Below, one piece after another: positions 12,449 to 54,869 of a stretch of DNA of 64,000 nucleotides (positions within the stretch are counted from its first letter, which is position 1; each line of letters begins with the position of its first letter). The stretch is from a virus. Location: the UHGV virus genome UHGV-0112180; one strand, 5' to 3'. The notes beneath the pieces were generated by a model, which worked only from the letters and a program-made list of their open reading frames with translations, was not told the origin of the DNA and searched no databases. A program made the translations under genes and the position numbers.

Positions 12449-12811
12449 TTAACTAACAATCCAGTCCGTAGCAACAACATCCTCTGGAGCTAAATCAATC
12501 GCATGGATTTTCCCATCCCGGATAGTGCGCCAGTGCTTTCGTGATCCACCTTCGGGCCACACCCATACACCTTCAGGCCAGGATACTCGACGGCATACGA
12601 TTGCATAGCCTGTTTTAATCCTCTCTCTGGCGGTATGCAACGACAGGTTTGCCTTTGGACTTTCAGGCACAGGATGGTGGATTGCCTGAAACATCCCCAT
12701 CTTTGGATGATACCAGCGTTTATTGCGTGGTTCTGCCTCCGACATCACCTGCTTAAAGGCTTTCCGGAAGGGGGGCCATGGCCACAATGGAGCGTCGCGC
12801 AAGCAAACCAT
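12449..12811 (-). pseudogene. Frameshifted 3' continuation of the antirepressor gene (copy 1), fused in-frame to a homologue of the small ORF that follows copy 2
   Basis: PPFRKAFKQVMSEAEPRNKRWYHPKMGMFQ parallels SPFMNAFNRMMSEAEHRGKRWYHPKMGQFQ at the end of 51363..52070; the tail VCRRVSWPEGVWVWPEGG parallels VCRRKVWSVGVWAWPDNY of 51166..51366. Confidence 0.3.
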
Positions 12812-13391
12812 CGGGAGTTAAAAACTCATGCGTATCGGTGGGAATCCGGAAAGCGTTAACCAGGTTGCGGCATTTGGCTTCAGTCAGGCCACATTTCGCC
12901 GCCAGCTGGCGGTAGCCAATGTAGCCTTCCGGAATATTGCCTTTCTTTATTTGCTCGAGTGTTTCAGCGACCATCGATACTTGTGCTGATACCTCGGCTA
13001 CCTGGGCATTTACGGCGTTGATCCGGCGTTCATGCTCAAGATGCATTTGCGCCATTTCAGCCAGAATTTCGGCTTTTGATTTTAACTGTACCCGGGCATT
13101 CTCCAGTTCGCGCCAGCGGTCCACCAGCCGGGCGGTGAATTCGGGAGAGAGCTGCGCGACGACGACAATACTATCGCGCTTGCCTTGCTCGCCTTCGAAG
13201 AAATAGGCTTTTGTGTATTTATTAGGGCTAAGTGATTGATTATTCTCAACTGTAGCCAATGGCGTATGTTGGATAACTCCTTTAGCAACAAGTCTTTCGA
13301 TGCTGCGTTTAACATCAGAGTGACGACTTCCCACCAGTTCCGCGATCTCAATGCTGGTCATTGTCGCTTTTTGAGAGATGGACAGATTCAT
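12753..13391 (-). CDS. Rha-type phage regulatory protein / antirepressor-like (copy 1; C-terminus altered by frameshift relative to copy 2)
   Basis: MTSIEIAELVGSRHSDVKRSIERLVAKGVI N-terminus and FEGEQGKRDSIVVVAQLSPEFTARLVDRWRELE core, near-identical to copy 2. Confidence 0.55.
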   Translation of the reverse strand: MNLSISQKATMTSIEIAELVGSRHSDVKRSIERLVAKGVIQHTPLATVENNQSLSPNKYTKAYFFEGEQGKRDSIVVVAQLSPEFTARLVDRWRELENARVQLKSKAEILAEMAQMHLEHERRINAVNAQVAEVSAQVSMVAETLEQIKKGNIPEGYIGYRQLAAKCGLTEAKCRNLVNAFRIPTDTHEFLTPDGLLARRSIVAMAPLPESL

Positions 13392-13606
13392 CAGTGCACC
13401 TCCACGCAGTTCATTGGCAGATTCCAGTAATTGAGGATCTCCATCGCATCAAGAGTGAAGCGAGCAGCAAAAATGCAGGGTTCTTCGGGAAGGTATGAGC
13501 GCGCCTCTGCTTCGGTAGCAGCCATTACGCAGATATAAAGGTGTTTTTGGCAGGAATAGAAACGCCAGATAAATTCAGAATGAGTTGGGGTAGGGATAGT
13601 AGCCAT
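13391..13606 (-). CDS. Icd-like small protein (P1 immI icd position, copy 1)
   Basis: 71 aa, EFIWRF...AATEAEAR motif; stop overlaps the ant start; AAGGAGG ribosome-binding site. Confidence 0.5.
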   Translation of the reverse strand: MATIPTPTHSEFIWRFYSCQKHLYICVMAATEAEARSYLPEEPCIFAARFTLDAMEILNYWNLPMNCVEVH

Positions 13607-13918
13607 ATTGGCAGCCTCCTTTGACTAAGTTAAGGAGCTACCGCGTGAGGTTCCAATCTCAATGGCGGTAGCACTGACTGGGTTGGAACTACCGGCGTCA
13701 AAGGGAACCGGCCTGCCTTTCGGCAGCCCAGCCAGCACTACCATTGATCTCTGAGCTAAACGCTAAGTATGGCTGTGCGATGGCATGACACAAAAAAAGA
13801 CGCGTTCGGCGTCTGTGTCGCCTTTGACATTATCCGGGGTTCCAATCCCGGCACCCGTTTTTCTAAGGTGCCGTAGAAATATACCCCACGATAATGCCAG
13901 GGCGCAACAGTCAGTATT

Positions 13919-31145: not shown

Positions 31146-31355
31146 TAAAATGCCGATTTTTTTTAATCCATCATAGATTGATGATGACCAGTAACACGTT
31201 GCCTTCATGGTCTTTAATTTGCGAAGTGTGGTTTCTACGGTTGGTTTTCTAAAATTGATGACAAAAAATCACAGTTCGATCCTTTACTCACTCTGTTATT
31301 CGACATAAATTTGTCATAGTAATTTTATGTTAGAAAACTAAATCGAGTAGGAATA

Positions 31356-32393
31356 ATGAGTAAGAAGTCGATCGAGAAAGAGTACAAACGGTTCCTGCAA
31401 ACCGCTGAACGGTGGAAAGAGCTGGTGGTCGCAAACTCTGTTTTCCATGATACCAGTTATGCTGGCGAGGAATTCCGCCATGTTGCATTAACGCATGACC
31501 AAAACATATTAGAAGAAGCTGAAAAATGTCTTGCTGAATGGAAAGCCTTCGTTGACATGTGCCGCGATGCCGACGGCAAAGCGTCGAACATTGTTGAGTC
31601 TGTATATTCTCCGATCCCATTCATCATTGAGGACACCAATCAAAGCACGCATGTCGTTGTGCAAAGCGCTACAACAACACGTACATTTACACGTGAACAA
31701 TTGCTAAAAAAATACGACAAAATCATAAAGAAAAGCCTTAAAAATAGGGTTTTTTCTCAAATCGTAGGTGATCTTGAAGAAGAACAGCGCTTCTTTGAAG
31801 CTGAGCCTGAAGGCGAGATCTACCGGGCGCGTAAAGAGGCATATACAGATGTTGTGCTGACAACAAACATCGAAGGCAGCAATGCCCTTTCTCGCTTTAG
31901 AGTTGGCGCACATGGTGCATTGGTTTTCGCAAGACTACCGAAGACAACGATCCCCGTTGTCAATAATGTTGGTGAACGCCGGAGCATTACAATTTATTCT
32001 GGCGTCGAATCGGTACCTTGCAGCCTTCTCGGCGATTTTAACTTATATCGTGTTCGTGACCTGGAAAAACACCAGCCAAGCTATGTTGCGAAGTCGTACA
32101 TCTTAAGGAACATCGATATTCGCAATGAAAGCCTTAAGCAGAAATCCGCTAAGATGCTGGAGGATGCCGATCCGGCTATTCGCCATATCATTGAGCGTAA
32201 GATACGTACATCACGTGAAGCAATGGCAAGGCTGGATAAAATGGATCTGGAATTGTTAGACGTAATGATGGCCTCTGGAGACGACCTGACCGGCATTAAA
32301 CTGAATGAAGCTCGTAAAAAATACGGCAAAGCAATCGAAGAACGTTACGGATACACATTCCCCCAAACGCAGTACGCCGCGAAGCTCTGGTAA
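31356..32393 (+). CDS. Hypothetical protein at the P1 immC (c1) position
   Basis: 345-aa ORF convergent with pacB; two copies of the TTTCTAACA-type motif in its upstream region; no sequence-level confirmation. Confidence 0.35.
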   Translation: MSKKSIEKEYKRFLQTAERWKELVVANSVFHDTSYAGEEFRHVALTHDQNILEEAEKCLAEWKAFVDMCRDADGKASNIVESVYSPIPFIIEDTNQSTHVVVQSATTTRTFTREQLLKKYDKIIKKSLKNRVFSQIVGDLEEEQRFFEAEPEGEIYRARKEAYTDVVLTTNIEGSNALSRFRVGAHGALVFARLPKTTIPVVNNVGERRSITIYSGVESVPCSLLGDFNLYRVRDLEKHQPSYVAKSYILRNIDIRNESLKQKSAKMLEDADPAIRHIIERKIRTSREAMARLDKMDLELLDVMMASGDDLTGIKLNEARKKYGKAIEERYGYTFPQTQYAAKLW

Positions 32394-37212: not shown

Positions 37213-37288
37213 TGGTGGCCCCTACCGGACTTGAACCGGTGACCGTGCGATTATGAGTCGCCAGCTCTAACCACTGAGCTAAGGGGCC
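37213..37288 (-). tRNA. tRNA with CAU anticodon (Ile2/lysidine-type, ileX-like; Met not excluded)
   Basis: GGCCCCTTAGCTCAGTGGTTAGAGC...GACTCATAATC...GGTTCAAGTCCGGTAGGGGCCACCA; 7-bp acceptor stem, canonical D and T arms, encoded CCA. Confidence 0.8.
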
Positions 37289-37297
37289 AATTAGTTT

Positions 37298-37411
37298 TTA
37301 TTTTCGACGCCTGAGATTCTTCGCTACTTGTTCTACTCCGTATACGATCACAAGCAGAAATAGCAAAGACCATCCAGGGTTCTTATCAATATACGTCCAA
37401 AAATCCATCAT
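37298..37411 (-). CDS. Small membrane peptide (37 aa), tci-operon member
   Basis: MMDFWTYIDKNPGWSLLFLLVIVYGVEQVAKNLRRRK; start overlaps upstream stop (ATGA). Confidence 0.25.
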   Translation of the reverse strand: MMDFWTYIDKNPGWSLLFLLVIVYGVEQVAKNLRRRK

Positions 37412-37572
37412 GAGTTCCTGAACGCAGCTTTAATAATCGGCAATAGCAATACCACAGCTACTGAAACCAGTGCCCCATCAGCCAACACCGACATCACTTT
37501 GCTGGTGAAATCCACCAGCACGGACAAAACGAGAAAACCAATGGCGCACGCAATACGCGCCTTGCCAATCAT
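37408..37572 (-). CDS. Small membrane protein (54 aa), tci-operon member
   Basis: MIGKARIACAIGFLVLSVLVDFTSKVMSVLADGALVSVAVVLLLPIIKAAFRNS; start overlaps the TerB-like stop (TAATG). Confidence 0.35.
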   Translation of the reverse strand: MIGKARIACAIGFLVLSVLVDFTSKVMSVLADGALVSVAVVLLLPIIKAAFRNS

Positions 37573-38006
37573 TACAGATAATCTTCCACACGAAGGCCCA
37601 AACGACGGCCTACTTCTTCCAGTACTTTGTGTTCTGCTGGCTCGATTTCACCGTCCGCTTCTGCAATCGTCAGCATGTTAACGAATACTTCTTCCGCTTC
37701 TTTTGGATCATTTTTGATATCTTCAATTTCGCGAAGGATATTCATGCGACCAACACGGAAACCAGCTTCCAGTTGCTCAGTAAAACGGGTGATTGTTGCG
37801 GTAATTTCGTTGCCAAAATGACTTAAGCGAGGATTAGAGCGGACAAGCTGATCAAGTTTCGCTGTTTCTTCCTTTTCGATTTCACCATCTGCGGCAGACA
37901 CCAACAAACAGCCACCGATAATGGCCTCCATCAGATCGCGATTCTCAACCCTTTTCAGCTCTACTTTTGCTGAAGCGACTTTCTTACCGAAAAATTTACC
38001 GAACAT
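37572..38006 (-). CDS. TerB-family tellurite-resistance-like protein (P1 TciA analogue)
   Basis: Two AADGEI / AEADGEI TerB-type repeats in a 144-aa protein. Confidence 0.65.
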   Translation of the reverse strand: MFGKFFGKKVASAKVELKRVENRDLMEAIIGGCLLVSAADGEIEKEETAKLDQLVRSNPRLSHFGNEITATITRFTEQLEAGFRVGRMNILREIEDIKNDPKEAEEVFVNMLTIAEADGEIEPAEHKVLEEVGRRLGLRVEDYL

Positions 38007-38273
38007 TGGTTATCCCTCAATAAACATGACGTATTTATTAGGTTGCGGTGCCTGGTGCCTCCAGGTGACGTTAACCAGTTAACAATTAACGCCGGGATGT
38101 TTGACTTAACCACTAAGGAGGATTGTTTTAACTGTTCCGCGTGCGCATAGCCGCATTCACCGCAATGGTAAGAGCACTTGGCTGGCTGGGCGGCGATGAC
38201 GCCTGTACGCATTTGGTGATCCGGTTCTGCTTCCGGCATTCGCTTAATTAGCCAAATACTCTTAACGTTGCAC

Positions 38274-38360
38274 TGGCGGAGAGTAATGGAATCGAACCAT
38301 CATCGCTTGCGCAATGGGACGGTTTTCAAGACCGTTTGAGCACCATGCTCCCTACTCTCC
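38274..38360 (-). tRNA. tRNA-Ser(UGA)-like, type II with long variable arm and atypically short D-loop (possible pseudo-tRNA)
   Basis: Acceptor GGAGAGT/ACTCTCC + G + CCA; anticodon arm ACGGT-CTTGAAA-ACCGT; T-arm GATGG-TTCGATT-CCATT; D-loop only about 5 nt. Confidence 0.45.
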
Positions 38361-38462
38361 AGTGATTGTGATGGTCGGTGCTGAACTCCGACACAGGGTT
38401 GTAGCAAGCCCCGCAAAGCGCGCACTACTGTAGTTGCGGCACATCAGCCTGTGCATTCACCA

Positions 38463-38552
38463 CAATGTTGAGAACACTGGTTGTCACGCTGCAACGCAAC
38501 ATTTATTCGTAGATTGGGATATGACCCCGTTACGCCAGTGTTCTCAACGTTG
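38463..38552. repeat. Hairpin element of the tRNA-array repeat family (18-bp near-perfect inverted repeat)
   Basis: CAATGTTGAGAACACTGG ... CCAGTGTTCTCAACGTTG with about 55-nt loop. Confidence 0.45.
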
Positions 38553-38690
38553 TAGTGCCGGTTACGGTTCCGGCCAGGCCTCTTCCTCAACGGGGTGTTC
38601 TCCATACGGACTACCGTTTATTGGTCGTTCCTGCGGTTTATGTTGTGAAGCCAGATGCTTATCTTCTGGTTGCTTCAAAGAGCTGCACTT

Positions 38691-38770
38691 CATCACAACG
38701 GTAAGAGCACTCGATGCATTTAAGCCAAGCCCCATAAGGGAGAATGCCCTTACCTGTTGTGTTGTGATGA
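38691..38770. repeat. Hairpin element of the tRNA-array repeat family
   Basis: CATCACAACGGTAAGAGCAC ... GCCCTTACCTGTTGTGTTGTGATG. Confidence 0.45.
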
Positions 38771-38884
38771 CCGGTGCTGATCTCCGGCTTGCGGTTATTT
38801 CAGACTCTCACGGGCGTTTATTTGCCCCGCCGAACAGCTCTTTTCCGCAATAGCTGCAATGTCTTTCGCGCATCAGCCTGCGCA

Positions 38885-38977
38885 TTCATCACAACGGTAA
38901 GGGTACTTCGTAGGGATTCGAACCCTCTGCCAAGCACGGCGATCTCCGACGTCGCAAAATACCCTTACCTGTTGTGT
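38885..38977. repeat. Hairpin element of the tRNA-array repeat family; interior carries a tRNA T-arm-like GGGATTCGAACCC
   Basis: CATTCATCACAACGGTAAGGGTAC ... TACCCTTACCTGTTGTGTTGG, ending immediately before tRNA-Thr. Confidence 0.45.
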
Positions 38978-39054
38978 TGGTGCCGGTTAACGGACTCGAA
39001 CCGCTGACATCCTGCTTACAAGGCAGGCGCTCTACCAACTGAGCTAAACCGGCA
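38978..39054 (-). tRNA. tRNA-Thr (UGU)
   Basis: TGCCGGTTTAGCTCAGTTGGTAGAGCGCCTGCCTTGTAAGCAGGATGTCAGCGGTTCGAGTCCGTTAACCGGCACCA; perfect acceptor and anticodon stems. Confidence 0.8.
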
Positions 39055-39057
39055 ATT

Positions 39058-39144
39058 TGGTGGGGAGTGATGGAGTCGAACCACCCGAGTCGCAATGACA
39101 GTAGATTTACAGTCTACCCCGCTACCCCTACGGACTAACTCCCC
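39058..39144 (-). tRNA. tRNA-Tyr (GUA)-like, type II
   Basis: Acceptor GGGGAGT/ACTCCCC + A + CCA; anticodon arm GTAGA-CTGTAAA-TCTAC; long variable arm; D-arm somewhat atypical. Confidence 0.55.
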
Positions 39145-39149
39145 TGAAT

Positions 39150-39226
39150 TGGCGATGGTGGGTGGATTCGAACCACCGACCGACAGCTTAGAAGGCTGCT
39201 GCTCTATCCTACTGAGCTACACCACC
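39150..39226 (-). tRNA. tRNA-Arg (UCU)
   Basis: GGTGGTGTAGCTCAGTAGGATAGAGC...CCTTCTAAG...GGTGGTTCGAATCCACC...GCCA; anticodon loop CUUCUAA as in argU. Confidence 0.75.
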
Positions 39227-43659: not shown

Positions 43660-46600
43660 TTAGGCCGCATCGGCGATTATTTTACGCAGTTCATCTACCG
43701 AGTAACGCGTAGATACCATCCATGCAGGACGGTCAAAGTTCACATCAGCAACCGGGTTTGCTTCAAAATTCCAGAAACGCCCGCCAATCTTCTTAATCGC
43801 GTCTTTGGCGTTCCGTATTGTCGAGGAACCTGGCTGGTCGGCAATGAGATAAACCGCGCCAACGTCTTCGCTGACGCTCCACCAGCGCCCGCGAACACGC
43901 GCCTTAGCGCGAATCGGCTTATCATTAACCACAATGATATAGTCATCATTCGCCGCTTCATCAGCTCTTGCTTCAGCCACTGCCGCCTGCTCTTCTCTTT
44001 TGCTTTCAGCCTGCTCAAGCCTTTTCGCGATCTCTGATTCAGTGGCCCCGCCGTTTTTCAGCGATACATAGTCCTGCCACGTTGCCGATTTGAGCGCATC
44101 CGGCAACTCATTCACATAGTCGCCGTCTTTCAACTCACGGGCGCGACGGGTAGCCATTTCTACCAGGCGATTAACAGAAACAGCATCAGCAAAATCGTCC
44201 TTACTAATGTGTTTTTCATCAAATGCATTGATGACAGCCCCAACCTTAATCCACTGTGCTGCCGGTGATTCCAAGGGGTTATCAGCCTGAACAATGGCGA
44301 GTTTCGCTCCATCTACCCCATTATTCGCCAGCTGTTCCAATGCCGCCCATCCATCTGCATCACTGAGTGATTTATATTGCTCAAACAATGCATCGCGCCA
44401 GGCCACCAGCGCAGAACGTGTTTTTTCGATCTTCGCCTTAATTTTCGCGATCTTGACCTGATTAAACATCCGTTCAATATCATCGATATTGCTAAAGGCT
44501 TTCATCCTGCCCTGGAATAAACGGTATGCCAGCACGGTCCTCCAGAATGATTCCAGACCTTCTCCGGACGGTTTACGGAACAAGCTAAGAATATCTTCAG
44601 AAGTGACTTTATTAAGCGAACGACCTGACAGACCACGCCCAGCCATCCAGTTTTCGAACTCCTGGGCAACATCATCCATCGTTGCTTGTGCGCCCCATGC
44701 CTGCATTCCCTGGATGTAATCATACCCATACAATGCCTGGAGGAATCCCTCTCCGTCCACGATATTCAGCGGATTATCACTGGCTTGTATTTTTGCCACT
44801 TCACGCTTCAGCGCCTCATTGTTGATATCAGGGTAAATCCACTGCTCTGGTGCAATATCCGATGTACGCCCGATTTTCTGTCCTATCATGCCATCATAGG
44901 TCGATGACAGCGCGATCTGACCATCATCTGTGCGATAAGCCCAGTATTTAATAGCTGACCCACCGCCCCATGCATTACCAGGTTTACCAGCAATAACATT
45001 CATTACCCCATTGCGAATAGCATCATAGAACTGATCGCGAGTAAGTATTGTTGATAGCTGGTGGCACTGAACACCACGCGCAGCCGTTGCGCGCGATTCA
45101 GCTACCCCCTCTTCAAAAGTTACCGCTTCAATCACAGAGTCAAACGGCAATGTAACGATTGACCCCGGTGCTCGAGCGTAACGACTTGCTCTATCCAGCC
45201 AGGCGATACGGCAGAGGTATTGTGCTTTTTCACCGTCAATTTTTTCCACCCGGACAATCGCTGTTGTTTCGCGATCATCAATGACTGCACGGTAATAACT
45301 ACCTTTATGCAACAGGATATTCTTGTCAGTGCGCATATATTCCTGTGGGTTCTGAATAACATCGATACTGATATCCAGCACACCAGACTTAATAGCGCGC
45401 TCCACATCACCACGAGAGCGTTTCATTATGGTATCCGCGTCTTTTGCCCTGGTGATCGCAAACCGCAGCACCCGCGCACGTTTTCTGTAGCTACTCAACT
45501 GCTCAAGCGCGTATTTTTGCCCATTCCTGTTCGTACCCGCTTTTATCAGGTCGTCAAGATTGCGCTGGTAATACTCTATCTGTTCCATCGCGCTTTTCAG
45601 TTCTGTCTCCATCATGCCGATATCTTTTCCGGCGGCGTTTGCCGCTTTCAGGTAGATATCGAGAGCATTGTTGGCCTCGCGCTGTGCTTTCAGTTTCAGA
45701 CGTTCTTCACGCTCTTGCGCCTGGCGAGCCATGATTGCGCGGCGTTCTTCCGGGTTTGCCGCCAGCATAATGGCGCGTTCATCAGCATCATCCGCATCAC
45801 CATTGGCGATCTCTGACATGTCGGAGGTCATCACCATCTTGATCCAATCTTTCTTACGTTTCAGCGTATCCAGACGGAAGTCGTCGAATGTGCCTTTGCC
45901 ACAATAGTAGTGAACATTGACCTTCTCTTGCGGTGAACCTACGCGCGCACCGCGCCCATTTCGTTGGTCGATACTGGCTGGTGTCCAGGGTAGTGTCAGG
46001 TGGTGGATATCGGTTGTCCCGATGTGCAGGTTAATACCTACTTCAGCCTTCTTGTTACAGATTATGATACGCGTGCGACCTTCGTTATAGTCGGCGGCAA
46101 TACCTTCCATGCCCTCAAGGCCAGCATCATTTTTAGCTGAGAGATAATCCTCATATTGGGCAAGTTTGCTGTAGTAGGTTTCCCATGCCCCTTCTTTGTA
46201 TTCACCGTTTTTGTTTGGAGTAGGTTCGGTCGGCTTATTCACCTTCTTCAGCTTGATGCCGCCAGCCTGGCTAACTGTCGTTGCATTGATAATGCCAATC
46301 TCCTGCTCCGGCATTTGCAGTGCACTGGCGATAATACGGCGCAGCTTCTGGTGCTGGGCTTTTTCATCAATAAAGACGATCTGCTTACCGTTCTTCAGAC
46401 CTTCACGAAGATTTTCGATCAGCGCGGCATACTTCGGCGGGATGGGGTGCGATACCTGCTGCATATCAATACCGGCAGCCGCAATGGCCTTAAGTATTTC
46501 AGCTTCCAGTTCAATGCTGGCACGTATTTCAACATGCGTCGGATGTTCACTAAAAGCGGTCTTCACTACCTTGCTGGTACGCGTACTGACCAGCCCGCCA

Positions 46601-49600
46601 GCGCCGTCTTCCTCGGCCTCATCAACATCATCTGCCACTTTACCGCCAGCTACTTTTGGCAAGGCATCAGCAATAGCTTTTACCTGGTCTGCAAGCTCAA
46701 CGGGGAACTGGAATGTAATCGCACTGGCATACAGATCCGGGTCTATAGCAACCTTGTCCATGTCACGGATGATGGAGAAGATGAAATCATCCGGTTTGTC
46801 GTTAGTGATATGCCCGTTTTCATCGACTGTCAGCTCATCATTGCGACTTAACTCCTGAGCACGCTTACGAAGCTCTTCATAAGCAGTCTCCTGCTCCCCT
46901 GTCATCGGGATCTGCAAGGTGTTCTCAATGATGTCGGGAATTTTAACCGTTGCTCCGACATCTGCAGCAGTCTTCAGAGTGGTCCAACGATGGAAAATAC
47001 CACGCAGGCCGTCAAGGTTCTGGAAGCCCACCAGCCCCTGCTTCTCTTCCACTTCCCCGGAAATTTTCTGGACCTGAACTGTGGCTGTTTTGCCAAACAC
47101 ACGAACGAAATCATCAGGCGTAATGATGCCCATGCGCATCCACTCTTCCTGCGGAATGACAGTAGACAGCATGTTGAAGGCATCAATCGGACTGTTCACC
47201 AGCGGAGTTGCCGTCAGCATGACTACACCACGCCCGTTGTTGCGTTTCATCATGTACGCAGCTTTTACAGCCATGTCGCGGGCCATCTTGGATACTGCCG
47301 GGTTAGGCAAATATGCCAGTTGTCCCGCTTCACGCCCGGCATTAAAGGAGTTGCGGTAGTTATGCCCCTCGTCGGCAATCACGCTATCGAAGTTCATATC
47401 CTCAAAGTACGGGATATTCTGCTTCTTCGTTGTACCGGTATTCGCGGCCTGATCCTTAATCTTGTTCTTCTTCTGCGCATCACGGTGTTTACCGGACGCC
47501 AGGTCAAGACGCCCCATTTCCACAGCATTAAAGACAGCTTGCTGTGAGTTCTCCTCGATGGTTTTTTCTCGTAGCGGGATAGACGCGAATTGTTCTTTTG
47601 TCATGATGACCGTTCGCCAATTTGACGACGGGATCATGTTCATGCGCTGAACGATAACGGCGCTGGCGGACTCTTTCACAACATTTCTGGTAAGAGGCTG
47701 CCCGTTACTGTCGAGGCGTGGTTCGCCATTTTCATCAAGCACCGGCGCGGTCAGAATATTTCCGCTGTCATCACGAACTTCATCCAAACCGATAAACATC
47801 ATATTGGCGAAGGCATCAGCACTGTAGAAACTCTGTGCCTCGTGATACCAGTTCTGATAAACCGCCTTCGGAACAACAATACACGTGCGTTTAGTGCGAC
47901 CTGTTTCGAAGTTATACGCCTCAAGCGCAAGCGCGGTCGTGGTTTTACCCAGCCCGGTACCAAATCCCATGATGCCGCGCCCATCTTCTGACAAGCGCCG
48001 AACTTCTTCATTCTGATAAGTAAGAGGAATGCGCTTTCCACTAAGCCCTTCCAGGCCAAGCGGTGCGTCAGAATGCGTGAACGGAATGAAACCATTGAAT
48101 GCGTCGTTATACTCGCGGGCTATCTGATCAGCCTGCGGGTGAGTGCGTAACCAGTCGTTAAAACTAACTTCCAGTTGAGCAATTTTATCCAGGTACTCGT
48201 TAGCGTTCTGCCCACGCGGTTTAACACCGTTCAGGTAGTTTTCTAACTGGTTCAGGAAGCCGTCTTTATTGTTGGCCTTCTTGAACTCATTCCCGTTTTT
48301 GCCGTTTACGGTTCGTAGCTGATAGCCGGTAAATACCCCGTCCTTACCTTCGTAATCGTCCGGAGATACCAGAATGCCATCGACGACCTTCAGATCAGGT
48401 TCAGTGTACTTAAACTCGTCATAGCCCTGCTCTGCCAGGAACTCTTTTATCAAGCGGCGATCCAGCCAGCGGGCATTCAGATTAACGGTGACTTTATTTA
48501 GTGGCGTGAAAATACGTTTCTCTTCGATTTTCGCCAACTGACGCTCAAAGTTCGCTTTCTGCTCACCTGTTGACGCATCACGCCAGCCCATCAGCAATGC
48601 TGTTTTGGTTGCAATATCGCCGCTGGTGGCGCGGTCCATCGGCAGCAGGCAGCCATACCCATCAATAGCGATATCATCAAATTTCGCCAGGTATTCAAGG
48701 GCCGCGTCGTCGTCCTCTGGCAGTTCACCAGCAAACGCCTCACGAAAGTCTCCCAGCGTTATAGGATTAAGGGCTACATCACTGAAAAGATGTGCTATCA
48801 CTTGTTCAGGACGTGTAAAGTCAATACCGGCAGCACCATCCGTTACATCAAGTCGCCCTGCCAGAAGGTCAGAAGTGGAACCATCCTGTTTCACATTGCC
48901 AGTGAACGTCATCCAGTTTTTAGCGCCAGCTTCAGCAAGCCCATTCAGCTTAATGGCGTGCGGTGGCCCATACTTCGCAACTTCTGCTGCCGCCAGGCGG
49001 GATGCATCTGCCAGTTTGTCATCAACGTTCACACCCAGGTTACGCAAATCAAGTGCCTTGTTGATCAACTGACCTATCAGCGCACCGCGCATAACGCGCT
49101 CCCTGTCTTTTTCTCGCTGCTTGCCAGCAAAGCGAATCATTGCTGCCACTTCATCACTGACAACCGATGGATAGTCGGACGCGATCGCCGATATCTGGTC
49201 CCATGACAAAGCCAGAATCCCGTTTGTTGACTGGAACGCGATCTGCAGATCGCCAAACGTCGAAACACCATATCGACTTACATCAAGCGCGGAGGATTTG
49301 GTTGTCGTGTCCTTAACCCATTTCAGACCATCAAACTCATGCCAGATACCGCCTACAAGGCGTTTATCGCCCACTTTCGCGCCCTGCCATGCCTGAGTAG
49401 TTACGCCGAGCAAATCCCAATTGATGCGACTATCAAAGCGACGAGATAGCGCGGTTTTCATCGACTCATTGGATACACGACCGTCTTTTTTCACCACCAG
49501 GGTATTGCGGAAGCTGGTACGTTCCATGTCGCCGTAAACAAATCGCTTCCCTTCGGTTGTAAACCATTTTCCTTTGAGGAAGGTATCCCAAAGGACGTTT

Positions 49601-50496
49601 GCCGATTTGAGTGTTGAATCATCCGTGTCGGGGATCATCTCCAGGAAGGTTTCCGGGTGTTTACGCAATACCCATACGTCCACCACGGTATCTGTACCGG
49701 ATTCGCTGAACGTACCGGAAGGCATACGATGTGCGCCCAAAAATTCCGCTTTACGGCTGACTTTATCGCGCAATTTTTTATATTTCGCACCATCGGTCAT
49801 GCCATTTGGCACCACCAATACGATAAGCCCACCAGGCTTAACCTTGTCGATCGTGCGCAGCACAAAGTAATTGCCAACGTTCTTCTCGTTTGCATATGCC
49901 GGATCAAGCCCGGCAACGCCGGAACGCCCTTCACCAAACGGTACGTTACCAACAGCGTGGTCATACATTGCATCTTTCGCCGCCAGCGCCTCAAACGCCC
50001 CGATATTCACATCGTCTTCCGGGTGCAAAAGCTGGTTTATTCGACCAGAAATCGGAGACAGTTCGGCGCTGGTCATTATCATGCCCTGCCGTTTTGTCTC
50101 CTGGAAAATACCTGTGCCCGCTGATGGTTCCAGTACGTGCCCGCCATCAATACCGTAGTCAGCAAACAGATCCCATATACCTTCAGCCATAAACTGTGGC
50201 GTGTAGTATTCGTATTGGCTGCCCTCACCATCTGTCAGGCCGCCTTCACCGGTATACCCAGCAAGAATCTGACGTTGTTCGTCAGTTAATTTCGCCCCAT
50301 CGAAGCCGGGCGGAAGGGAATTAAGAAGATTTACTGCGGCATTGTTTGCTGCCCGGCGTGTTTTCTGAATACTGACGCCATCGGCTTTCCTGACGCCAAA
50401 GGTCGCAACAGCACGTAATTTATGCAACCGACTAACAATTTCAATCAGTTCGCCTAAGCTGGAGGCTTCACTGATTGAATGAAGTAGTTTGTCCAA
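43660..50496 (-). CDS. darB: DarB-like giant methyltransferase-helicase (P1 defence-against-restriction type)
   Basis: 2278 aa; N-terminal N6-adenine MTase motifs (VLEPSAGTGIF, GNVPFG); DExH helicase motifs (GTGLGKT, VIADEGHNYRN); size matches P1 DarB. Confidence 0.8.
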   Translation of the reverse strand: MDKLLHSISEASSLGELIEIVSRLHKLRAVATFGVRKADGVSIQKTRRAANNAAVNLLNSLPPGFDGAKLTDEQRQILAGYTGEGGLTDGEGSQYEYYTPQFMAEGIWDLFADYGIDGGHVLEPSAGTGIFQETKRQGMIMTSAELSPISGRINQLLHPEDDVNIGAFEALAAKDAMYDHAVGNVPFGEGRSGVAGLDPAYANEKNVGNYFVLRTIDKVKPGGLIVLVVPNGMTDGAKYKKLRDKVSRKAEFLGAHRMPSGTFSESGTDTVVDVWVLRKHPETFLEMIPDTDDSTLKSANVLWDTFLKGKWFTTEGKRFVYGDMERTSFRNTLVVKKDGRVSNESMKTALSRRFDSRINWDLLGVTTQAWQGAKVGDKRLVGGIWHEFDGLKWVKDTTTKSSALDVSRYGVSTFGDLQIAFQSTNGILALSWDQISAIASDYPSVVSDEVAAMIRFAGKQREKDRERVMRGALIGQLINKALDLRNLGVNVDDKLADASRLAAAEVAKYGPPHAIKLNGLAEAGAKNWMTFTGNVKQDGSTSDLLAGRLDVTDGAAGIDFTRPEQVIAHLFSDVALNPITLGDFREAFAGELPEDDDAALEYLAKFDDIAIDGYGCLLPMDRATSGDIATKTALLMGWRDASTGEQKANFERQLAKIEEKRIFTPLNKVTVNLNARWLDRRLIKEFLAEQGYDEFKYTEPDLKVVDGILVSPDDYEGKDGVFTGYQLRTVNGKNGNEFKKANNKDGFLNQLENYLNGVKPRGQNANEYLDKIAQLEVSFNDWLRTHPQADQIAREYNDAFNGFIPFTHSDAPLGLEGLSGKRIPLTYQNEEVRRLSEDGRGIMGFGTGLGKTTTALALEAYNFETGRTKRTCIVVPKAVYQNWYHEAQSFYSADAFANMMFIGLDEVRDDSGNILTAPVLDENGEPRLDSNGQPLTRNVVKESASAVIVQRMNMIPSSNWRTVIMTKEQFASIPLREKTIEENSQQAVFNAVEMGRLDLASGKHRDAQKKNKIKDQAANTGTTKKQNIPYFEDMNFDSVIADEGHNYRNSFNAGREAGQLAYLPNPAVSKMARDMAVKAAYMMKRNNGRGVVMLTATPLVNSPIDAFNMLSTVIPQEEWMRMGIITPDDFVRVFGKTATVQVQKISGEVEEKQGLVGFQNLDGLRGIFHRWTTLKTAADVGATVKIPDIIENTLQIPMTGEQETAYEELRKRAQELSRNDELTVDENGHITNDKPDDFIFSIIRDMDKVAIDPDLYASAITFQFPVELADQVKAIADALPKVAGGKVADDVDEAEEDGAGGLVSTRTSKVVKTAFSEHPTHVEIRASIELEAEILKAIAAAGIDMQQVSHPIPPKYAALIENLREGLKNGKQIVFIDEKAQHQKLRRIIASALQMPEQEIGIINATTVSQAGGIKLKKVNKPTEPTPNKNGEYKEGAWETYYSKLAQYEDYLSAKNDAGLEGMEGIAADYNEGRTRIIICNKKAEVGINLHIGTTDIHHLTLPWTPASIDQRNGRGARVGSPQEKVNVHYYCGKGTFDDFRLDTLKRKKDWIKMVMTSDMSEIANGDADDADERAIMLAANPEERRAIMARQAQEREERLKLKAQREANNALDIYLKAANAAGKDIGMMETELKSAMEQIEYYQRNLDDLIKAGTNRNGQKYALEQLSSYRKRARVLRFAITRAKDADTIMKRSRGDVERAIKSGVLDISIDVIQNPQEYMRTDKNILLHKGSYYRAVIDDRETTAIVRVEKIDGEKAQYLCRIAWLDRASRYARAPGSIVTLPFDSVIEAVTFEEGVAESRATAARGVQCHQLSTILTRDQFYDAIRNGVMNVIAGKPGNAWGGGSAIKYWAYRTDDGQIALSSTYDGMIGQKIGRTSDIAPEQWIYPDINNEALKREVAKIQASDNPLNIVDGEGFLQALYGYDYIQGMQAWGAQATMDDVAQEFENWMAGRGLSGRSLNKVTSEDILSLFRKPSGEGLESFWRTVLAYRLFQGRMKAFSNIDDIERMFNQVKIAKIKAKIEKTRSALVAWRDALFEQYKSLSDADGWAALEQLANNGVDGAKLAIVQADNPLESPAAQWIKVGAVINAFDEKHISKDDFADAVSVNRLVEMATRRARELKDGDYVNELPDALKSATWQDYVSLKNGGATESEIAKRLEQAESKREEQAAVAEARADEAANDDYIIVVNDKPIRAKARVRGRWWSVSEDVGAVYLIADQPGSSTIRNAKDAIKKIGGRFWNFEANPVADVNFDRPAWMVSTRYSVDELRKIIADAA

Positions 50497-50647
50497 AGGA
50501 TTTCCCCCTCTAAACCGTAAAAAATTCCGCTATGCGGTACGGTTGAGAGGGTATGGAGAATGTTATTTTCAGGGGGACGATACTACCGTCAAAATCACAT
50601 ACTCCCCATAGTTTGCCTACTTATTAACCCATGACCGGGAGAAAAAT

Positions 50648-51133
50648 ATGGCAAACATTGAACCTCGCTGGCTAATTGAAGCCCGTAAGCACATTGGCCT
50701 GACTGAAATAAAAGGCGCTAAACACAACCCTGAAATCGTTCAGTTCTGGCGCGACATCAAGCGCGGCGGAATTAAAGACGATGAAACGCCGTGGTGCGCA
50801 GCATTTGTCGGTGCAATGCTGGAACGTGTAGGCATCCGCTCAACAAGATTTGAGTCGGCAAAATCCTATCTGGATTGGGGCGAAAAATTAGATACACCGG
50901 CATACGGATGTATCGTTGTATTTACCCGCGTAGGCGGTGGGCACGTAGGCTTCGTTGTCGGACGCCGTGCCAATGGCGATCTGCTTGTCCTGGGTGGGAA
51001 CCAGGGGGATGCTGTTAATATTCGCGCATTCCCAACATCAAGAGTGTCTGGCTATCGCTGGCCTGCTGGCGAACCACGCAATACCGCTCTGTTACCAGTC
51101 GGAGACGCAGCAACCTCAACTAATGAGGCATGA
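50648..51133 (+). CDS. CHAP/NlpC-P60-like peptidoglycan hydrolase family protein (tentative)
   Basis: Putative catalytic Cys (ETPWCAAFVG) and His (GGGHVGFVVG) in a 161-aa protein. Confidence 0.5.
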   Translation: MANIEPRWLIEARKHIGLTEIKGAKHNPEIVQFWRDIKRGGIKDDETPWCAAFVGAMLERVGIRSTRFESAKSYLDWGEKLDTPAYGCIVVFTRVGGGHVGFVVGRRANGDLLVLGGNQGDAVNIRAFPTSRVSGYRWPAGEPRNTALLPVGDAATSTNEA

Positions 51134-51136
51134 AAA

Positions 51137-51164
51137 AAGCCCCGGCCAGGCCGGGGCATCACGC
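51137..51164 (-). terminator. Rho-independent terminator (minus strand)
   Basis: On minus strand GCCCCGGCC-TGG-CCGGGGC followed by TTTTTT. Confidence 0.5.
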
Positions 51165-51165
51165 T

Positions 51166-51366
51166 TCAAGTCACGATCCAATCATTACCGACTATATCAG
51201 CCGTCGATAAATCAACTTCCCGGATCTGGAGTCCATTAATACAAAACCATCCGGTAGTAGAGTAATTATCAGGCCAGGCCCATACACCAACACTCCATAC
51301 TTTACGGCGGCACACTTCAGCCTGTCCTTCCCTGATTTTTTTTACCGCCTGCATGATGTCCATCAC
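51166..51366 (-). CDS. Small protein downstream of ant (copy 2)
   Basis: 66-aa ORF overlapping the ant stop; homologous segment is fused in copy 1. Confidence 0.35.
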   Translation of the reverse strand: MMDIMQAVKKIREGQAEVCRRKVWSVGVWAWPDNYSTTGWFCINGLQIREVDLSTADIVGNDWIVT

Positions 51367-52070
51367 TCACCTCCCCAACCGATCACCTGGAATTGCCCCA
51401 TTTTGGGGTGATACCAGCGTTTTCCTCGGTGTTCAGCCTCCGACATCATCCGGTTAAAAGCATTCATGAAGGGAGATAAGGCCACGATTGAACGACGCGA
51501 CAATACCCCCTCTGGAGTTAAAAACTCATGCGTATCTGTGGGGATCCGGTAAGCGTTGACCAGGTTGCGGCATTTGGCTTCGGTCAGGCCGCATTTTGCC
51601 GCCAGCTGGCGGTAGCCAATGTAACCTTCCGGCATGTTGCCCTTCTTGATTTGCTCGACGGTTTCTACCACTTGGCTAACCTTTGACTCAACAACATGAA
51701 GCCGCTTTTGCTGCTGAACTGCATTTGCAGCCATTGCGGCGATCATCTCTATTTCGGTCAACGGCTGGCGTGCTTGTTCTTCCAGTTCGCGCCAGCGGTC
51801 CACCAGCCGGGCGGTGAATTCGGGAGAGAGCTGCGCAACGACAATAATGCTGTCTCGTTTGCCTTGCTCGCCTTCGAAGACGTAAGCCTCGACACTACGG
51901 CGTAGTCCTAAGTTATTGATTTTTTCGAAAACCTGCAATGCAGGAAGTTGAATAACTCCAGATTTAGCCAGGCGCTCTATTGATATTTTTACGTTATCTG
52001 GACGACTTCCCACCAGCTCCGCGATCTCAATGCTGGTCATTGATGGCTTTTCAAGAATGCAGATATCCAT
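51363..52070 (-). CDS. Rha-type phage regulatory protein / antirepressor-like (copy 2, intact)
   Basis: MTSIEIAELVGSRPDNVKISIERLAKSGVI and FEGEQGKRDSIIVVAQLSPEFTARLVDRWRELE; single 235-aa frame. Confidence 0.55.
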   Translation of the reverse strand: MDICILEKPSMTSIEIAELVGSRPDNVKISIERLAKSGVIQLPALQVFEKINNLGLRRSVEAYVFEGEQGKRDSIIVVAQLSPEFTARLVDRWRELEEQARQPLTEIEMIAAMAANAVQQQKRLHVVESKVSQVVETVEQIKKGNMPEGYIGYRQLAAKCGLTEAKCRNLVNAYRIPTDTHEFLTPEGVLSRRSIVALSPFMNAFNRMMSEAEHRGKRWYHPKMGQFQVIGWGGE

Positions 52071-52294
52071 CAGTGTGCCTCCGCAATTCCGGGATTGGTA
52101 ATATTGCGATACCAGGGATTAGTGTTTGGTTGTGGGGAAGTAGAGAAACGACCAGTAAGAACACCATGCTGATCAGGGATCAGAGAACGGGCTTCTTTTT
52201 CGGTTGCGGCAATTGCGAAGTGATCGCAGTGTTTTTGCAGGGAGTGGAAACGCCAGATGAATTCTGGACGTGAGCAAGGATTGGCATTAACCAT
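52070..52294 (-). CDS. Icd-like small protein (copy 2)
   Basis: 74 aa, EFIWRF...AATEKEAR motif; stop overlaps the ant start. Confidence 0.5.
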   Translation of the reverse strand: MVNANPCSRPEFIWRFHSLQKHCDHFAIAATEKEARSLIPDQHGVLTGRFSTSPQPNTNPWYRNITNPGIAEAH

Positions 52295-52707
52295 AGTTAC
52301 GGCCTCACTAACAGGTTTAACAACCTGCTACCCGCTGTCAAACAGGTGGCAGGACGTGACAGGGTTGACAGACTGGCGTTAGTGAAACCAGCAGGCCGAA
52401 GCCTCCCCATCACGCCCCACCATAATTCGGGCGTAACGCGGTTTACGGACACAAAAATACCGCAATATCGGAAATCTGCGGTTGTCCGCACTAACATTCA
52501 GGCTGTCAAACCTGGTCGCAGAATTTGCTACGACGGCATGAATATAAGCCTGAAAACATGGAAGATCAACTAAAAATTTCAGCAATGGATGACTTCAGTC
52601 GATGATGCAGATCATACATTCCGATTTAGAAACAGCAAATTAATTTTCTAACACAGATTATCGAGCGAGCATTTTCCGATCATTGGGATGTTTTGTAGAC
52701 ACACAGG

Positions 52708-53670
52708 TCATCCCCTAAAGCCCGCCGGGATTGACCAATCCTCACGGTCAAATTCAGACCGATAGCCACGCTGTTTCATCAGGTCAAAGGCTTCACCAAT
52801 GGTTGCACACCCCAGGGAGCCAGAATAATCCATTGAGAAATCCAGGGCACTGGATTGTTTAGGCTTATTCACTGCGGTAGCGGCACTACGTATCCATGCA
52901 AATTTTTTTGCCAGCTTTTCAGCGGTACGATACAGAGCCTGCCGTTTTGCGTGCCCCTCGTCTGAACGACGCTTTGCAGCTCTCGCTTTTGCCGCCGCCA
53001 GGCAGTGGTTGGTATGTTCTTCCCTGATTACTGGTTTTTTATCCAGCACCCCATTATCCGCTTGAGAACTATCTGCTGGTGAAGCCTTTGGCTGAACCGC
53101 GCATGATCTTTCTCTTCTTTTTGCTATAGAGTGACTCTTATTTTCTATTGGCTGTTCATTTTGAACATGGGGGGACTTGTTCAATTTGAACAGGGGGTTC
53201 CCAGTTTCAAAAAAATAACGAACCTTTGAAATCAACTGCTTAACCAGTTTTGTGGCGTTGGCAAATTTGATGCCCTGCTTACCCCCTATCTCCATTGCTA
53301 CATGAATGAAGTGGAGAAATTGTGTCGTAAACCGATATACGTTACACACCTGGGCATTGTTATTCGCTACCTGATGTTGCTTAACAAGCATTCCGCACTT
53401 CGTCGCTTCAGCAAATGCCCGGCGCACAGTAGAAATACTGCGTCCTGTAATCTCGGACATATCAGCATATGAGCGACGGATCATGTATTCATCGGTAGAC
53501 CCTGCCAGGTTGGCGAACTCGGCAATAATGGCGCTATGTGAAGGGGAAAGAAGACCGCTATGACGAGCAAAAAAACTCAACTGATGACCTTTGATTTTTT
53601 TGTGGTATTCAGTGTTGTTTTTATACTCAGAAGTGTTGAAAGTTACTGAAACTGAATTTAAAATACTCAC
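52708..53670 (-). CDS. HTH-containing protein, possibly a RepL-type replication or regulatory protein
   Basis: HTH-like MSEITGRSISTVRRAFAEATKCGMLV; position upstream of the immI-like module. Confidence 0.3.
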   Translation of the reverse strand: MSILNSVSVTFNTSEYKNNTEYHKKIKGHQLSFFARHSGLLSPSHSAIIAEFANLAGSTDEYMIRRSYADMSEITGRSISTVRRAFAEATKCGMLVKQHQVANNNAQVCNVYRFTTQFLHFIHVAMEIGGKQGIKFANATKLVKQLISKVRYFFETGNPLFKLNKSPHVQNEQPIENKSHSIAKRRERSCAVQPKASPADSSQADNGVLDKKPVIREEHTNHCLAAAKARAAKRRSDEGHAKRQALYRTAEKLAKKFAWIRSAATAVNKPKQSSALDFSMDYSGSLGCATIGEAFDLMKQRGYRSEFDREDWSIPAGFRG

Positions 53671-53870
53671 CAGATAGTTCCGTGAAAAAATCTATCTACC
53701 GTATAAATCTATGGCAGTGGATTTATACACCCAAAAAGCCGCTTCTCAGCGGCTTTTGCTTTTTTGGCAGTCGCTACCGGAGCAGTGACCGCGATCCTAC
53801 TCGATCCCATCCACCAGGATCAACAGTGTATATAAATACACTATGTTAGAAATTTAACTTAACAAGGCAA

Positions 53871-54869
53871 TCACCCCCTTCTAGAAACGAAGAGTAACGG
53901 GGTGGTGTTTTTGTTCTCCTTCGGTGATAACTCTGGTTCTTTCTTGCCTGATACCGGTAAGCCATAAGTAGCATTTGCCCCAAGAGATTCAAGCATCGCA
54001 GCCACTATGCGGGCATCATCTTCAGACTGCATACGGCAGAGCGCCCGGCGCTGTTCTGCGCTGATAAAAACAGGCATTTCCTGGATAGCGTCACGCAAAA
54101 TCCGGCGGCATTGCTTTGCATTTTCCCCTTGGCTTTCCATCATCGCTGTTTGAGCGCGCAGCTTATCTCGAAGCTGTATGTTTTCCACTTCAAGGAGCAT
54201 CAATTCTGATTCCAGGGCTTCACGATGTGCAGATTCGAGCATGGCTTGCTGATTTTTCATTGCTGAAAAGTGGTGAACCAGATCCGTAGCTGCGTTATCG
54301 GTAAAACCTTGTTCGATAAGTGCTGCATGAATAGCCGCATCGCGCTCTTCTACTGATTCAAGCATCAGGCTTTTCTTGTCGAGGCTGATATAGTTAGGCA
54401 CAGTTACGTAATCAAAGCCGTGGAAAGACTTTACCAGGGATACCGATGAATCTGGACCAGATGTAGCCCACGACCAACCACCAGCACCAGAATTAATCAT
54501 GCCCTGAACAATACGCCCGGTGTCTGTATCCAGTATTTCCTGCGTATGAGTAACAATGCCGTTGTCGTCAATCGAAATGTCGATAGTCCTGTTTGACGGC
54601 ACGTTCTCCAATACAACAGGCTTCCCATCTACCATCACAACAGAGACTTCCGGCAAGTTCAGGCTTTTCGTTTTGTTATAGTGCATCGCCCGGCGACCAT
54701 GACCGTAATAACCATACATCTCACCCAGCGCGATACGCTCTTTTGTTTCTGGCGAGTTGAATGTGTCTCGTACCGACTGAATGACGTAATTTCGGTTGTT
54801 CTGCGGTGTGTGTTTGCGGATTTTCTCTACCAGGGAGAAGCGATCCGTAACAGTATTCAGTGATTGCAT
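53871..54869 (-). CDS. Head morphogenesis protein (possible prohead protease or scaffold; P1 pro position)
   Basis: 332 aa immediately downstream of the putative portal gene; assignment by size and position only. Confidence 0.3.
   Translation of the reverse strand: MQSLNTVTDRFSLVEKIRKHTPQNNRNYVIQSVRDTFNSPETKERIALGEMYGYYGHGRRAMHYNKTKSLNLPEVSVVMVDGKPVVLENVPSNRTIDISIDDNGIVTHTQEILDTDTGRIVQGMINSGAGGWSWATSGPDSSVSLVKSFHGFDYVTVPNYISLDKKSLMLESVEERDAAIHAALIEQGFTDNAATDLVHHFSAMKNQQAMLESAHREALESELMLLEVENIQLRDKLRAQTAMMESQGENAKQCRRILRDAIQEMPVFISAEQRRALCRMQSEDDARIVAAMLESLGANATYGLPVSGKKEPELSPKENKNTTPLLFVSRRG

Follow-up and report, generated by a model that had tools for sequence, protein, structure and literature searches.

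The segment between positions 51139 and 52654 of the window, i.e. of the whole stretch of 64,000 nucleotides analysed here, very probably carries a functional immI cassette of the P1 type, in which an antirepressor operon is gated by its own processed antisense RNA. We put the probability of this reading at about 0.85. It builds on features that could be read directly from the DNA of this D6-like phage-plasmid of E. coli: an RNA gene and its target boxes, their complementarity and co-variation, a promoter that can be aligned with that of P1, intact and coupled open reading frames (ORFs) and the absence of cross-targets in the other immI-like module of the window (copy 1; the module described here is copy 2).

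Organisation of the locus

Plasmid pF16EC0589-1 (CP088384.1) matches the region from 50500 to 53900 with 100% identity, and phage D6 (MF356679, 19123-22520) shares 96.4% DNA identity with it over 3.4 kb. Read 5' to 3' on the minus strand, repL is followed by an intergenic control region, icd, ant, an ORF of 66 aa and an intrinsic terminator. The whole operon, which consists of the promoter, a1/b1, C4, a2/b2, icd, ant, the 66-aa ORF and the terminator, lies on the minus strand. An intact module of icd, ant and a small ORF, located between the head genes and darB, had been reported in a preliminary description of this DNA. Both the coordinates and the placement were confirmed, the module being flanked by darB and a CHAP gene on one side and by repL and a head protease homologue on the other. 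The genes of the region and the terminator are the following:

43660-50496: darB, on the flank of the module facing away from repL
50648-51133: CHAP/TIGR02594 peptidoglycan-hydrolase gene, convergent, between darB and the module
51139-51157, minus strand: strong intrinsic terminator at the end of the operon, with a T-run behind an all-GC stem of 8 bp
51166-51366, minus strand: 66-aa ORF (orf66), the GTG start of which overlaps the ant stop; phrog_7385 (E 1.5e-48), a family without assigned function
51363-52070, minus strand: ant, 235 aa, Rha/Roi-like putative antirepressor; phrog_63 'anti-repressor Ant' (E 2.7e-47)
52070-52294, minus strand: icd, 74 aa, Icd-like cell-division inhibitor; NF033153 (40.3 bits), phrog_1426 (E 6.5e-39)
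52708-53670, minus strand: repL, directly upstream of the module, lytic replication protein according to the D6 and RefSeq annotation; phrog_2418
53871-54869: head protease homologue (D6 pro), beyond repL

The icd product shares 61% identity with P1 Icd over 61 aa, and the stop codon of icd has 1 nt in common with the start codon of ant. The 66-aa ORF is 40% identical to residues 249-313 of D6 orf82, which form the C-terminus (65 aa) of the antirepressor encoded by copy 1, and it can therefore be regarded as a split-off domain. A search of NCBIfam yielded no model for Ant, orf66 or RepL, and PDB sequence searches with Ant and orf66 returned nothing usable, the lone match to a designer PPR protein being below the threshold; no close relative of Ant with a solved structure or a characterised function emerged. 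Moreover, read-through from the upstream repL gene could be a possible modifier of the regulation.

The C4 RNA, its target boxes and their co-variation

The preliminary description had drawn attention to a direct repeat upstream of icd. The exact 10-mer GCTGTCAAAC is present in only two copies in the 64-kb window (52334-52343 and 52502-52511), with 0.20 matches expected by chance and two copies reached in 1 of 100 shuffles. The 20-nt consensus that had been given for the repeat fits 52502-52521 as written, but the copy at 52334 only if a 1-nt gap is introduced; when aligned, the two copies read GCTGTCAAAC-A-GGTGGCAG and GCTGTCAAAC-CT-GGTCGCAG. A second repeat pair, CACTAACA at 52306-52313 and 52489-52496, had been missed. 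To judge from the sequence, the repeat noticed earlier is the a1/a2 pair of C4 target boxes and the missed one is the b1/b2 pair. The similarity of the repeats extends beyond the a box because each a box sits directly after a G+C-rich helix, which is the leader hairpin GUCGUAG...CUGCGAC for a1 and the closing stem of C4 for a2. Furthermore, the window contains exactly three occurrences of the pattern TTGACAG-N(5-35)-GTTAGTG, with 0.00 expected, and these correspond to the two target sites and, in antisense, to the C4 loops. The control region comprises the following elements:

52303-52342, minus strand: target region in the icd leader, equivalent to the annotated P1 sites a2 and b2
52306-52312, minus strand: box b2 GTTAGTG (RNA sense GUUAGUG), in the icd leader
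52312-52327, minus strand: hairpin CAGGTTGTTAAACCTG in the target region
52335-52342, minus strand: box a2 TTTGACAG (RNA sense UUUGACAG), in the icd leader
52342-52427, minus strand: C4 antisense RNA gene; RF01695, 68.8 bits (gathering score 45), E 2.8e-11, all 87 model positions covered
52489-52495, minus strand: box b1 GTTAGTG (RNA sense GUUAGUG), the first base of which is the last position of the Rfam c4-a1b1 match
52495-52547, minus strand: leader with a1, Rfam c4-a1b1; RF03163, 54.4 bits (gathering score 46.7), all 53 model positions covered
52503-52510, minus strand: box a1 TTTGACAG (RNA sense UUUGACAG)
52541-52569, minus strand: sigma-70 promoter from a promoter scan, with -35 TTGATC (52564-52569), a 17-nt spacer and -10 TATATT (52541-52546)
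52638-52654, minus strand: candidate D6-type C1 operator GTGTTAGAAAATTAATT, which fits a 17-bp motif without mismatch and precedes the -35 hexamer by about 70 nt

The covariance search for C4 that had been proposed earlier was run and gave a full-length match above the gathering score, which lies between the two repeat sets. The RNA is predicted to fold with a minimum free energy of -42.5 kcal/mol (z -4.66). Two of its unpaired segments, the loop b' (CACTAAC, in RNA CACUAAC; 52378-52384) and the single-stranded a' (CTGTCAA, in RNA CUGUCAA; 52365-52371), are complementary to the b and a boxes, respectively. Box b2 overlaps the Shine-Dalgarno sequence GAGG (52303-52306), which precedes the ATG of icd by 8 nt. 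A terminator scan of copy 2 found no terminator between b1 and C4, and the isrK model (RF01394) had no match at copy 2, its only match in the window being in copy 1. Visual inspection of the interval between b1 and C4 of copy 2 showed no more than a weak hairpin with a U-run behind it.

The promoter at 52541-52569 aligns column by column with the annotated P1 promoter P51b (P1c4). In P1, P51b is constitutive and is accompanied by an upstream promoter under the C1 operator Op51. Control by a P1-type C1 repressor could be rejected because no site resembling the P1 C1 operator ATTGCTCTAATAAATTT was found in the whole window when up to 3 mismatches were allowed. The C1 homologue encoded at 31374-32150 is only 21% identical to P1 C1. 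A k-mer comparison uncovered a different 17-bp motif, GTGTTAGAAAANTAATT, with 14 sites in the window against 0.82 expected. These include the perfect copy upstream of this module as well as sites upstream of repL (53843-53859), upstream of the copy-1 operon and directly before the C1 homologue. The site at 52638-52654 holds the position that Op51 has in P1 and is kept in 18 of 19 loci with D6 context. We infer that the motif is a putative operator of the D6-type C1 repressor.

A comparison with the immI regions of D6 and P1, which had also been suggested, was carried out and bore out the immI-like identity of the module. From the -10 hexamer into icd, the elements a1, b1, C4, a2 and b2 are identical to those of phage P1, in whose record these sites have been annotated from experiments. 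BLAST detected 93% identity to P1 in the segment 52183-52554 and only there, so that the P1-like part is a regulatory cassette of about 370 bp ending inside icd. The regulatory region of phage D6 departs from that of the window in b1, b' and b2 and nowhere else, and the changes are coordinated (ACTTACG, CGTAAGT and ACTTACG, respectively). P7 possesses a third box set with a AGCAG and b GATTGTG. Thus, the box sets of D6, P7 and P1 differ and each of them is internally consistent.

The co-variation was also evident in a larger sample. When IMG/VR was scanned for exact matches to 21 nt of the C4 stem, at least 119 stretches were retrieved, from which 116 loci were parsed. Among these listed matches there are at least two a-box types and at least seven b-box types in 13 combinations; a1, a' and a2 agree in 116 of the 116 loci and b1, b' and b2 in 115. 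The sole exception is a natural recombinant carrying a P1-type b2 behind a different b'. When 49 distinct sequences are aligned, pairing reaches 100% in each of the helices a'-a2, b'-b2, a'-a1 and b'-b1, with compensatory changes at six of seven b pairs and two of seven a pairs and no one-sided changes, and the pairing dropped to 32-53% in a control in which the partner was slid by 1-3 columns. The upstream box pair is matched to C4 as tightly as the downstream pair. A lack of conservation of the repeats in relatives had been named as an outcome that would argue against the proposal; instead, their position is kept and they co-vary with the C4 loops.

These data also bear on two other explanations. 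As the repeats are direct repeats located 200-370 bp from the end of repL, they might act as DNA, either as RepL/oriL iterons or as repressor-binding sites. This is hardly credible given that both pairs show exact complementarity to the unpaired segments of the intervening C4 RNA and that, in relatives, the repeats change only along with these segments. Moreover, P1 has the same boxes even though its repL gene is located far downstream, and the operator-like motif dispersed through this genome has another sequence. It is also very unlikely that the module is a decaying immI duplicate without present function. That such copies can decay is shown by the other one of the two modules present, which has a frameshifted ant gene in this plasmid. 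However, all three ORFs of copy 2 are intact, its C4 and four boxes are identical to those of the functional P1 system, the perfect co-variation of boxes and loops across alleles requires selection and both D6 and 110 plasmids have kept the module. Both explanations were therefore rejected on the grounds of co-variation and conservation.

The putative antirepressor and the other module

Besides phrog_63, several further antirepressor PHROGs match the copy-2 ant product, which is 91% identical to D6 orf18 and 63% identical to D6 orf82, the copy-1 Ant. From its family, its position and this paralogy, Ant may be expected to inactivate the resident D6-type C1 repressor (31374-32150). Alternatively, the switch could work as described, and the Rha/Roi-like protein would not be the antirepressor of the resident C1 but a DNA-binding regulator of the lytic phase linked to repL, or it could be aimed at the repressors of other prophages, like the cross-acting antirepressors of the Gifsy phages. 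In line with this, Pfam recognises only a winged helix (HTH_24, E 9e-7) and a sub-threshold Phage_pRha domain in the N-terminal part, and no BLASTP match to P1 Ant1 was obtained at E 1e-3. Furthermore, positions 51779-52041 in the N-terminal part of ant show about 90% DNA identity to genes named roi or 'DNA-binding protein' in Stx phages and further lambdoid phages, the RefSeq name of the product is 'Rha family transcriptional regulator' and the module adjoins repL. We regard this alternative as rather unlikely, since the best-matching family is phrog_63, the protein is encoded at the exact position of ant behind c4-icd and its 63%-identical paralogue is located behind the other C4-icd cassette.

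Moreover, P1 Ant1 and the Rha/Roi protein seem to be interchangeable behind one C4 scaffold. Among the IMG/VR matches listed, this scaffold precedes a gene of the P1 Ant1 type in 70 loci and a gene of the Rha/Roi type in 17 loci. A P1 operator is found upstream in 64 of the 70 Ant1-type loci, none of which has repL upstream where enough upstream sequence is available, whereas repL is upstream in all 15 of the 17 Rha/Roi-type loci with enough upstream sequence. Since one scaffold precedes two types of antirepressor, the RNA cassette appears to be a mobile control unit that has been joined to different effectors.

Returning to the antirepressor reading, the relationship between the two modules of the window has to be considered. 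Copy 1, which served as the comparator, is organised as follows:

12449-13871, minus strand: copy 1 module
12449-13391, minus strand: ant, frameshifted at the C-run 12770-12775
13391-13606, minus strand: icd
13661-13748, minus strand: C4 (77.1 bits)
13793-13871, minus strand: isrK-like a1b1 RNA (RF01394) with its own terminator

A CDS for a 39-aa 'ash family protein' has been annotated across the C4 RNA gene of copy 1. The boxes of copy 1 are TTGGAAC (a; UUGGAAC in RNA) and GTCAAAGG (b; GUCAAAGG in RNA). The earlier remark that the repeats of the two copies differ holds true, the boxes being wholly unrelated. Within the window, the box pair of each copy occurs only three times, namely in its own two targets and its own C4, and no cross-target of either C4 was found in the other module. 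The predicted duplex energies range from -26 to -34 kcal/mol for cognate partners and from -12 to -18 kcal/mol across the copies. As the boxes are unrelated and cross-targets are absent from the window, it is plausible that the two circuits are independent at the RNA level. Co-resident cassettes in at least seven multi-copy IMG/VR contigs differ in the b box in all 11 pairs. An avoidance of shared b boxes among co-resident cassettes is suggestive only, the rough chance probability being about 0.06 for 11 pairs that are not independent of each other.

The idea of two independent antirepressor circuits could thus be maintained for the RNA, but not without reservation for the proteins. Copy-1 ant contains an extra C in the C-run 12770-12775 that causes a +1 frameshift in this plasmid, while in D6 and plasmid pLD93-1-90kb (99.9% identical) the gene is intact and encodes a 313-aa protein. 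Unless the extra C is a sequencing error, only copy 2 encodes an intact antirepressor here, and owing to the frameshift there is possibly only one working antirepressor circuit.

Two immI-like modules in one genome had been considered unusual and copy 2 had been called the second one. Neither view can be upheld, because both modules are present in phage D6 and each of them is found in many plasmids, and copy 2 is the P1-orthologous one with a C4 and four boxes identical to those of P1. In D6, orf17-19 correspond to this copy and orf82-83 to the other, and at both sites icd and a putative antirepressor are annotated. In PLSDB, at least 80% of this module is present in 110 plasmids and at least 80% of copy 1 in 91, with many accessions in common between the top lists for the two modules. 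Copy 2 is also present in 96 of 5,426 complete E. coli genomes, and at least seven P1-like contigs of IMG/VR carry two to three cassettes with the same C4 scaffold. A second c4-icd region in a D6-like plasmid was already noted in 2019 (PMC6799933), and a survey of P1-like plasmids described extra icd-ant homologues (PMC6906374). Thus, D6-like phage-plasmids normally have two modules, and both the system and this instance are already known. Mildly new are the breadth of natural a and b alleles, the exact P1 allele on a D6-type backbone and the candidate operator motif. A C4 RNA annotation is absent from the D6 and RefSeq records that were examined, which is a modest side result.

Proposed mechanism and relation to known systems

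Because the sequences are identical, the RNA mechanism established for P1 can be transferred to copy 2 with confidence. Transcription would start from the P51b-like promoter (52541-52569) and possibly also from an upstream promoter controlled by the operator, and the primary transcript would contain the hairpin, a1/b1, C4, a2/b2, icd, ant and orf66 in this order. The C4 RNA of about 77-86 nt would then be excised from the transcript; in P1, it is released by RNase P. Its b' (CACUAAC) and a' (CUGUCAA) segments are expected to pair with b2 and a2 of the same kind of transcript. As the C4-paired b2 overlaps the Shine-Dalgarno sequence of icd, icd would remain untranslated. In P1, blocked icd translation leads to Rho-dependent termination within icd, before ant is reached. 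By the same logic, a lack of icd translation in copy 2 would bring transcription to an early end and leave the coupled genes ant and orf66 unexpressed. When C4 is outrun or titrated, Icd, which is a division inhibitor, and the Rha/Roi-like Ant would be produced, and Ant would inactivate the resident D6-type C1 repressor. The upstream a1/b1 pair would bind the same C4 loops and most likely serves as a decoy or anti-antisense, as for IsrK. Indeed, the a1b1-like IsrK RNA of Gifsy-1 activates a downstream antirepressor in trans (PMC4825925). For copy 2, the processing, the translational block, the early end of transcription, the function of a1b1 as a decoy and the protein targeted by Ant are thus modelled on the work on P1, P7 and IsrK.

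The main value of the present analysis lies in clearing the record, as the repeats are textbook C4 target boxes. The alleles also provide a very clean case of natural co-variation, in which three sites change together. Beyond this locus, the C4 cassette may be a portable and combinatorially addressed RNA switch, with at least two a and at least seven b alleles, that is placed in front of different antirepressors, so that co-resident cassettes would be gated independently and cross-regulation with the C4 of P1 would be expected. This generalisation is tentative, and we give it slightly less than an even chance. Since the exact P1 address is found here on a repressor/antirepressor pair that is not that of P1, this C4 and the P1 C4 should cross-regulate each other. 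If this is true, two phage-plasmids that are otherwise heteroimmune would be linked in their choice between lysis and lysogeny. As this plasmid joins the RNA address of P1 to another antirepressor, it could provide a simple experimental handle on the cross-talk between co-resident or superinfecting phage-plasmids.

Among the known systems, the immI regions of P1 and P7 are close in architecture. They share with copy 2 the order of promoter, a1/b1, C4, a2/b2, icd and ant, the P51b-type promoter, the location of b2 over the icd ribosome-binding site and the translational coupling of icd and ant. Moreover, the a and b boxes have changed in a coordinated way among the relatives analysed here, as they have between P1 and P7. 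However, copy 2 encodes a Rha/Roi-like antirepressor of 235 aa and a separate 66-aa ORF instead of Ant1/Ant2, kilA and an adjacent sim operon are lacking, a terminator follows orf66 and Op51 is replaced by a different 17-bp motif. In P1, repL is located downstream of ant and kilA, with kilA-repL under Op53, whereas it is upstream of the module here. The D6 genes orf17-orf19 (MF356679, 19789-20917) and the corresponding region of D6-like plasmid prophages, for instance pYU39_89, represent the same locus, with darB, the peptidoglycan hydrolase gene, repL and pro as neighbours. D6 differs in having its own b allele (ACTTACG/CGTAAGT), while this plasmid carries the P1 allele (GTTAGTG/CACTAAC).

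More distant parallels exist as well. The IsrK-orf45-AnrP system of the Salmonella phage Gifsy-1 also consists of an a1b1-like RNA, a processed C4-like RNA, a small ORF and an antirepressor (PMC4825925). In contrast to Gifsy-1, copy 2 has no strong terminator after a1b1, so that a short a1b1 RNA is not evident. Finally, the CI RNA of the satellite phage P4 resembles C4 in being processed from a leader and in pairing with repeats (seqA, seqC) up- and downstream, according to the literature cited in PMC4825925. The outcome in P4 is the premature termination of the transcription of replication genes rather than a translational block of icd-ant.

Recombination of the C4 cassette

The similarity of copy 2, the intact C4-icd-ant module of the window, to P1 is restricted to a segment of only about 370 bp (93% identity), which begins at the promoter and runs as far as roughly codon 37 of icd. 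The mosaic boundaries are located at window position 52183, within icd, and at about 52554. The remainder of icd and ant is of a different origin, so the regulatory segment is exchanged in recombination as one block.

Relatives in IMG/VR were also inspected for the boxes with which the antisense RNA C4 pairs. Among the matches listed, a mismatch between C4 and the b2 box was found in only one of 116 loci carrying the copy-2-type C4 scaffold. This locus, L043 (IMGVR_UViG_2565956613_000015, reverse strand, first 250 nt), combines b1/b' of the ACGAATG/CATTCGT type with a b2 box of the P1 type (GTTAGTG), and is thus a natural recombinant. Since its C4 does not match its own b2 site, repression is predicted to be weakened. 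Moreover, at least seven P1-like contigs have more than one cassette on the same C4 scaffold, two or three each:

L017, L052 and L100
L014, L077 and L105
L055 and L064
L067 and L093
L056 and L098
L099 and L112
L107 and L111

In every case (seven multi-cassette contigs among the matches listed), the b box differs between the co-resident cassettes.

RNA elements and ant of copy 1

Two RNA elements belong to copy 1, the other C4 module of the window:

13661-13748, C4 RNA gene
13793-13871, minus strand, a1b1 element (Rfam isrK, 61.3 bits)

Because of the isrK score and a 3' end consisting of a stem followed by a T-run, the a1b1 element is the IsrK-type variant, predicted to form a separate short RNA, in contrast to copy 2. 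A 39-aa "ash family protein" CDS annotated in GenBank and RefSeq (window about 13625-13744; CP088384.1 7500-7619) overlaps the C4 gene and is probably the mis-annotated C4 RNA gene. For the copy-2 C4 RNA, no feature is annotated in the RefSeq plasmid record examined. The Rfam scan also detected four clustered tRNA genes (37216-39226, minus strand).

The C-run at 12770-12775 (within 12766-12779) in the copy-1 ant gene contains six C, versus five in phage D6 and in the 99.9%-identical plasmid pLD93-1-90kb. The extra C breaks up the 313-aa protein, leaving two ORFs of 212 aa and 120 aa. It is due either to a frameshift private to this sequence or to a homopolymer error in the sequencing of CP088384.1.

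A dispersed motif and the C1 homologue

The 17-bp motif GTGTTAGAAAANTAATT is scattered through the window, with 14 sites versus 0.82 expected (up to three mismatches allowed):

2741-2772 (two sites, at 2741 and 2756, overlapping in inverted orientation)
14407, 15059, 19648, 29917, 31327, 35760, 40288, 40444, 41693, 42736, 52638, 53843

Both C4 modules and repL each have a site upstream, and another of these sites (31327-31343) lies immediately 5' of the following gene:

31374-32150, plus strand, C1 repressor homologue (tblastn E 1e-6 to P1 C1)

The motif is a candidate operator of the D6-type C1 repressor. No site for the P1 operator was found anywhere in the window, and the C1 homologue shares only 21% identity with P1 C1 (tblastn). 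A palindromic (bivalent) P1-type C1 operator precedes several extra cassettes of the multi-cassette IMG/VR contigs.
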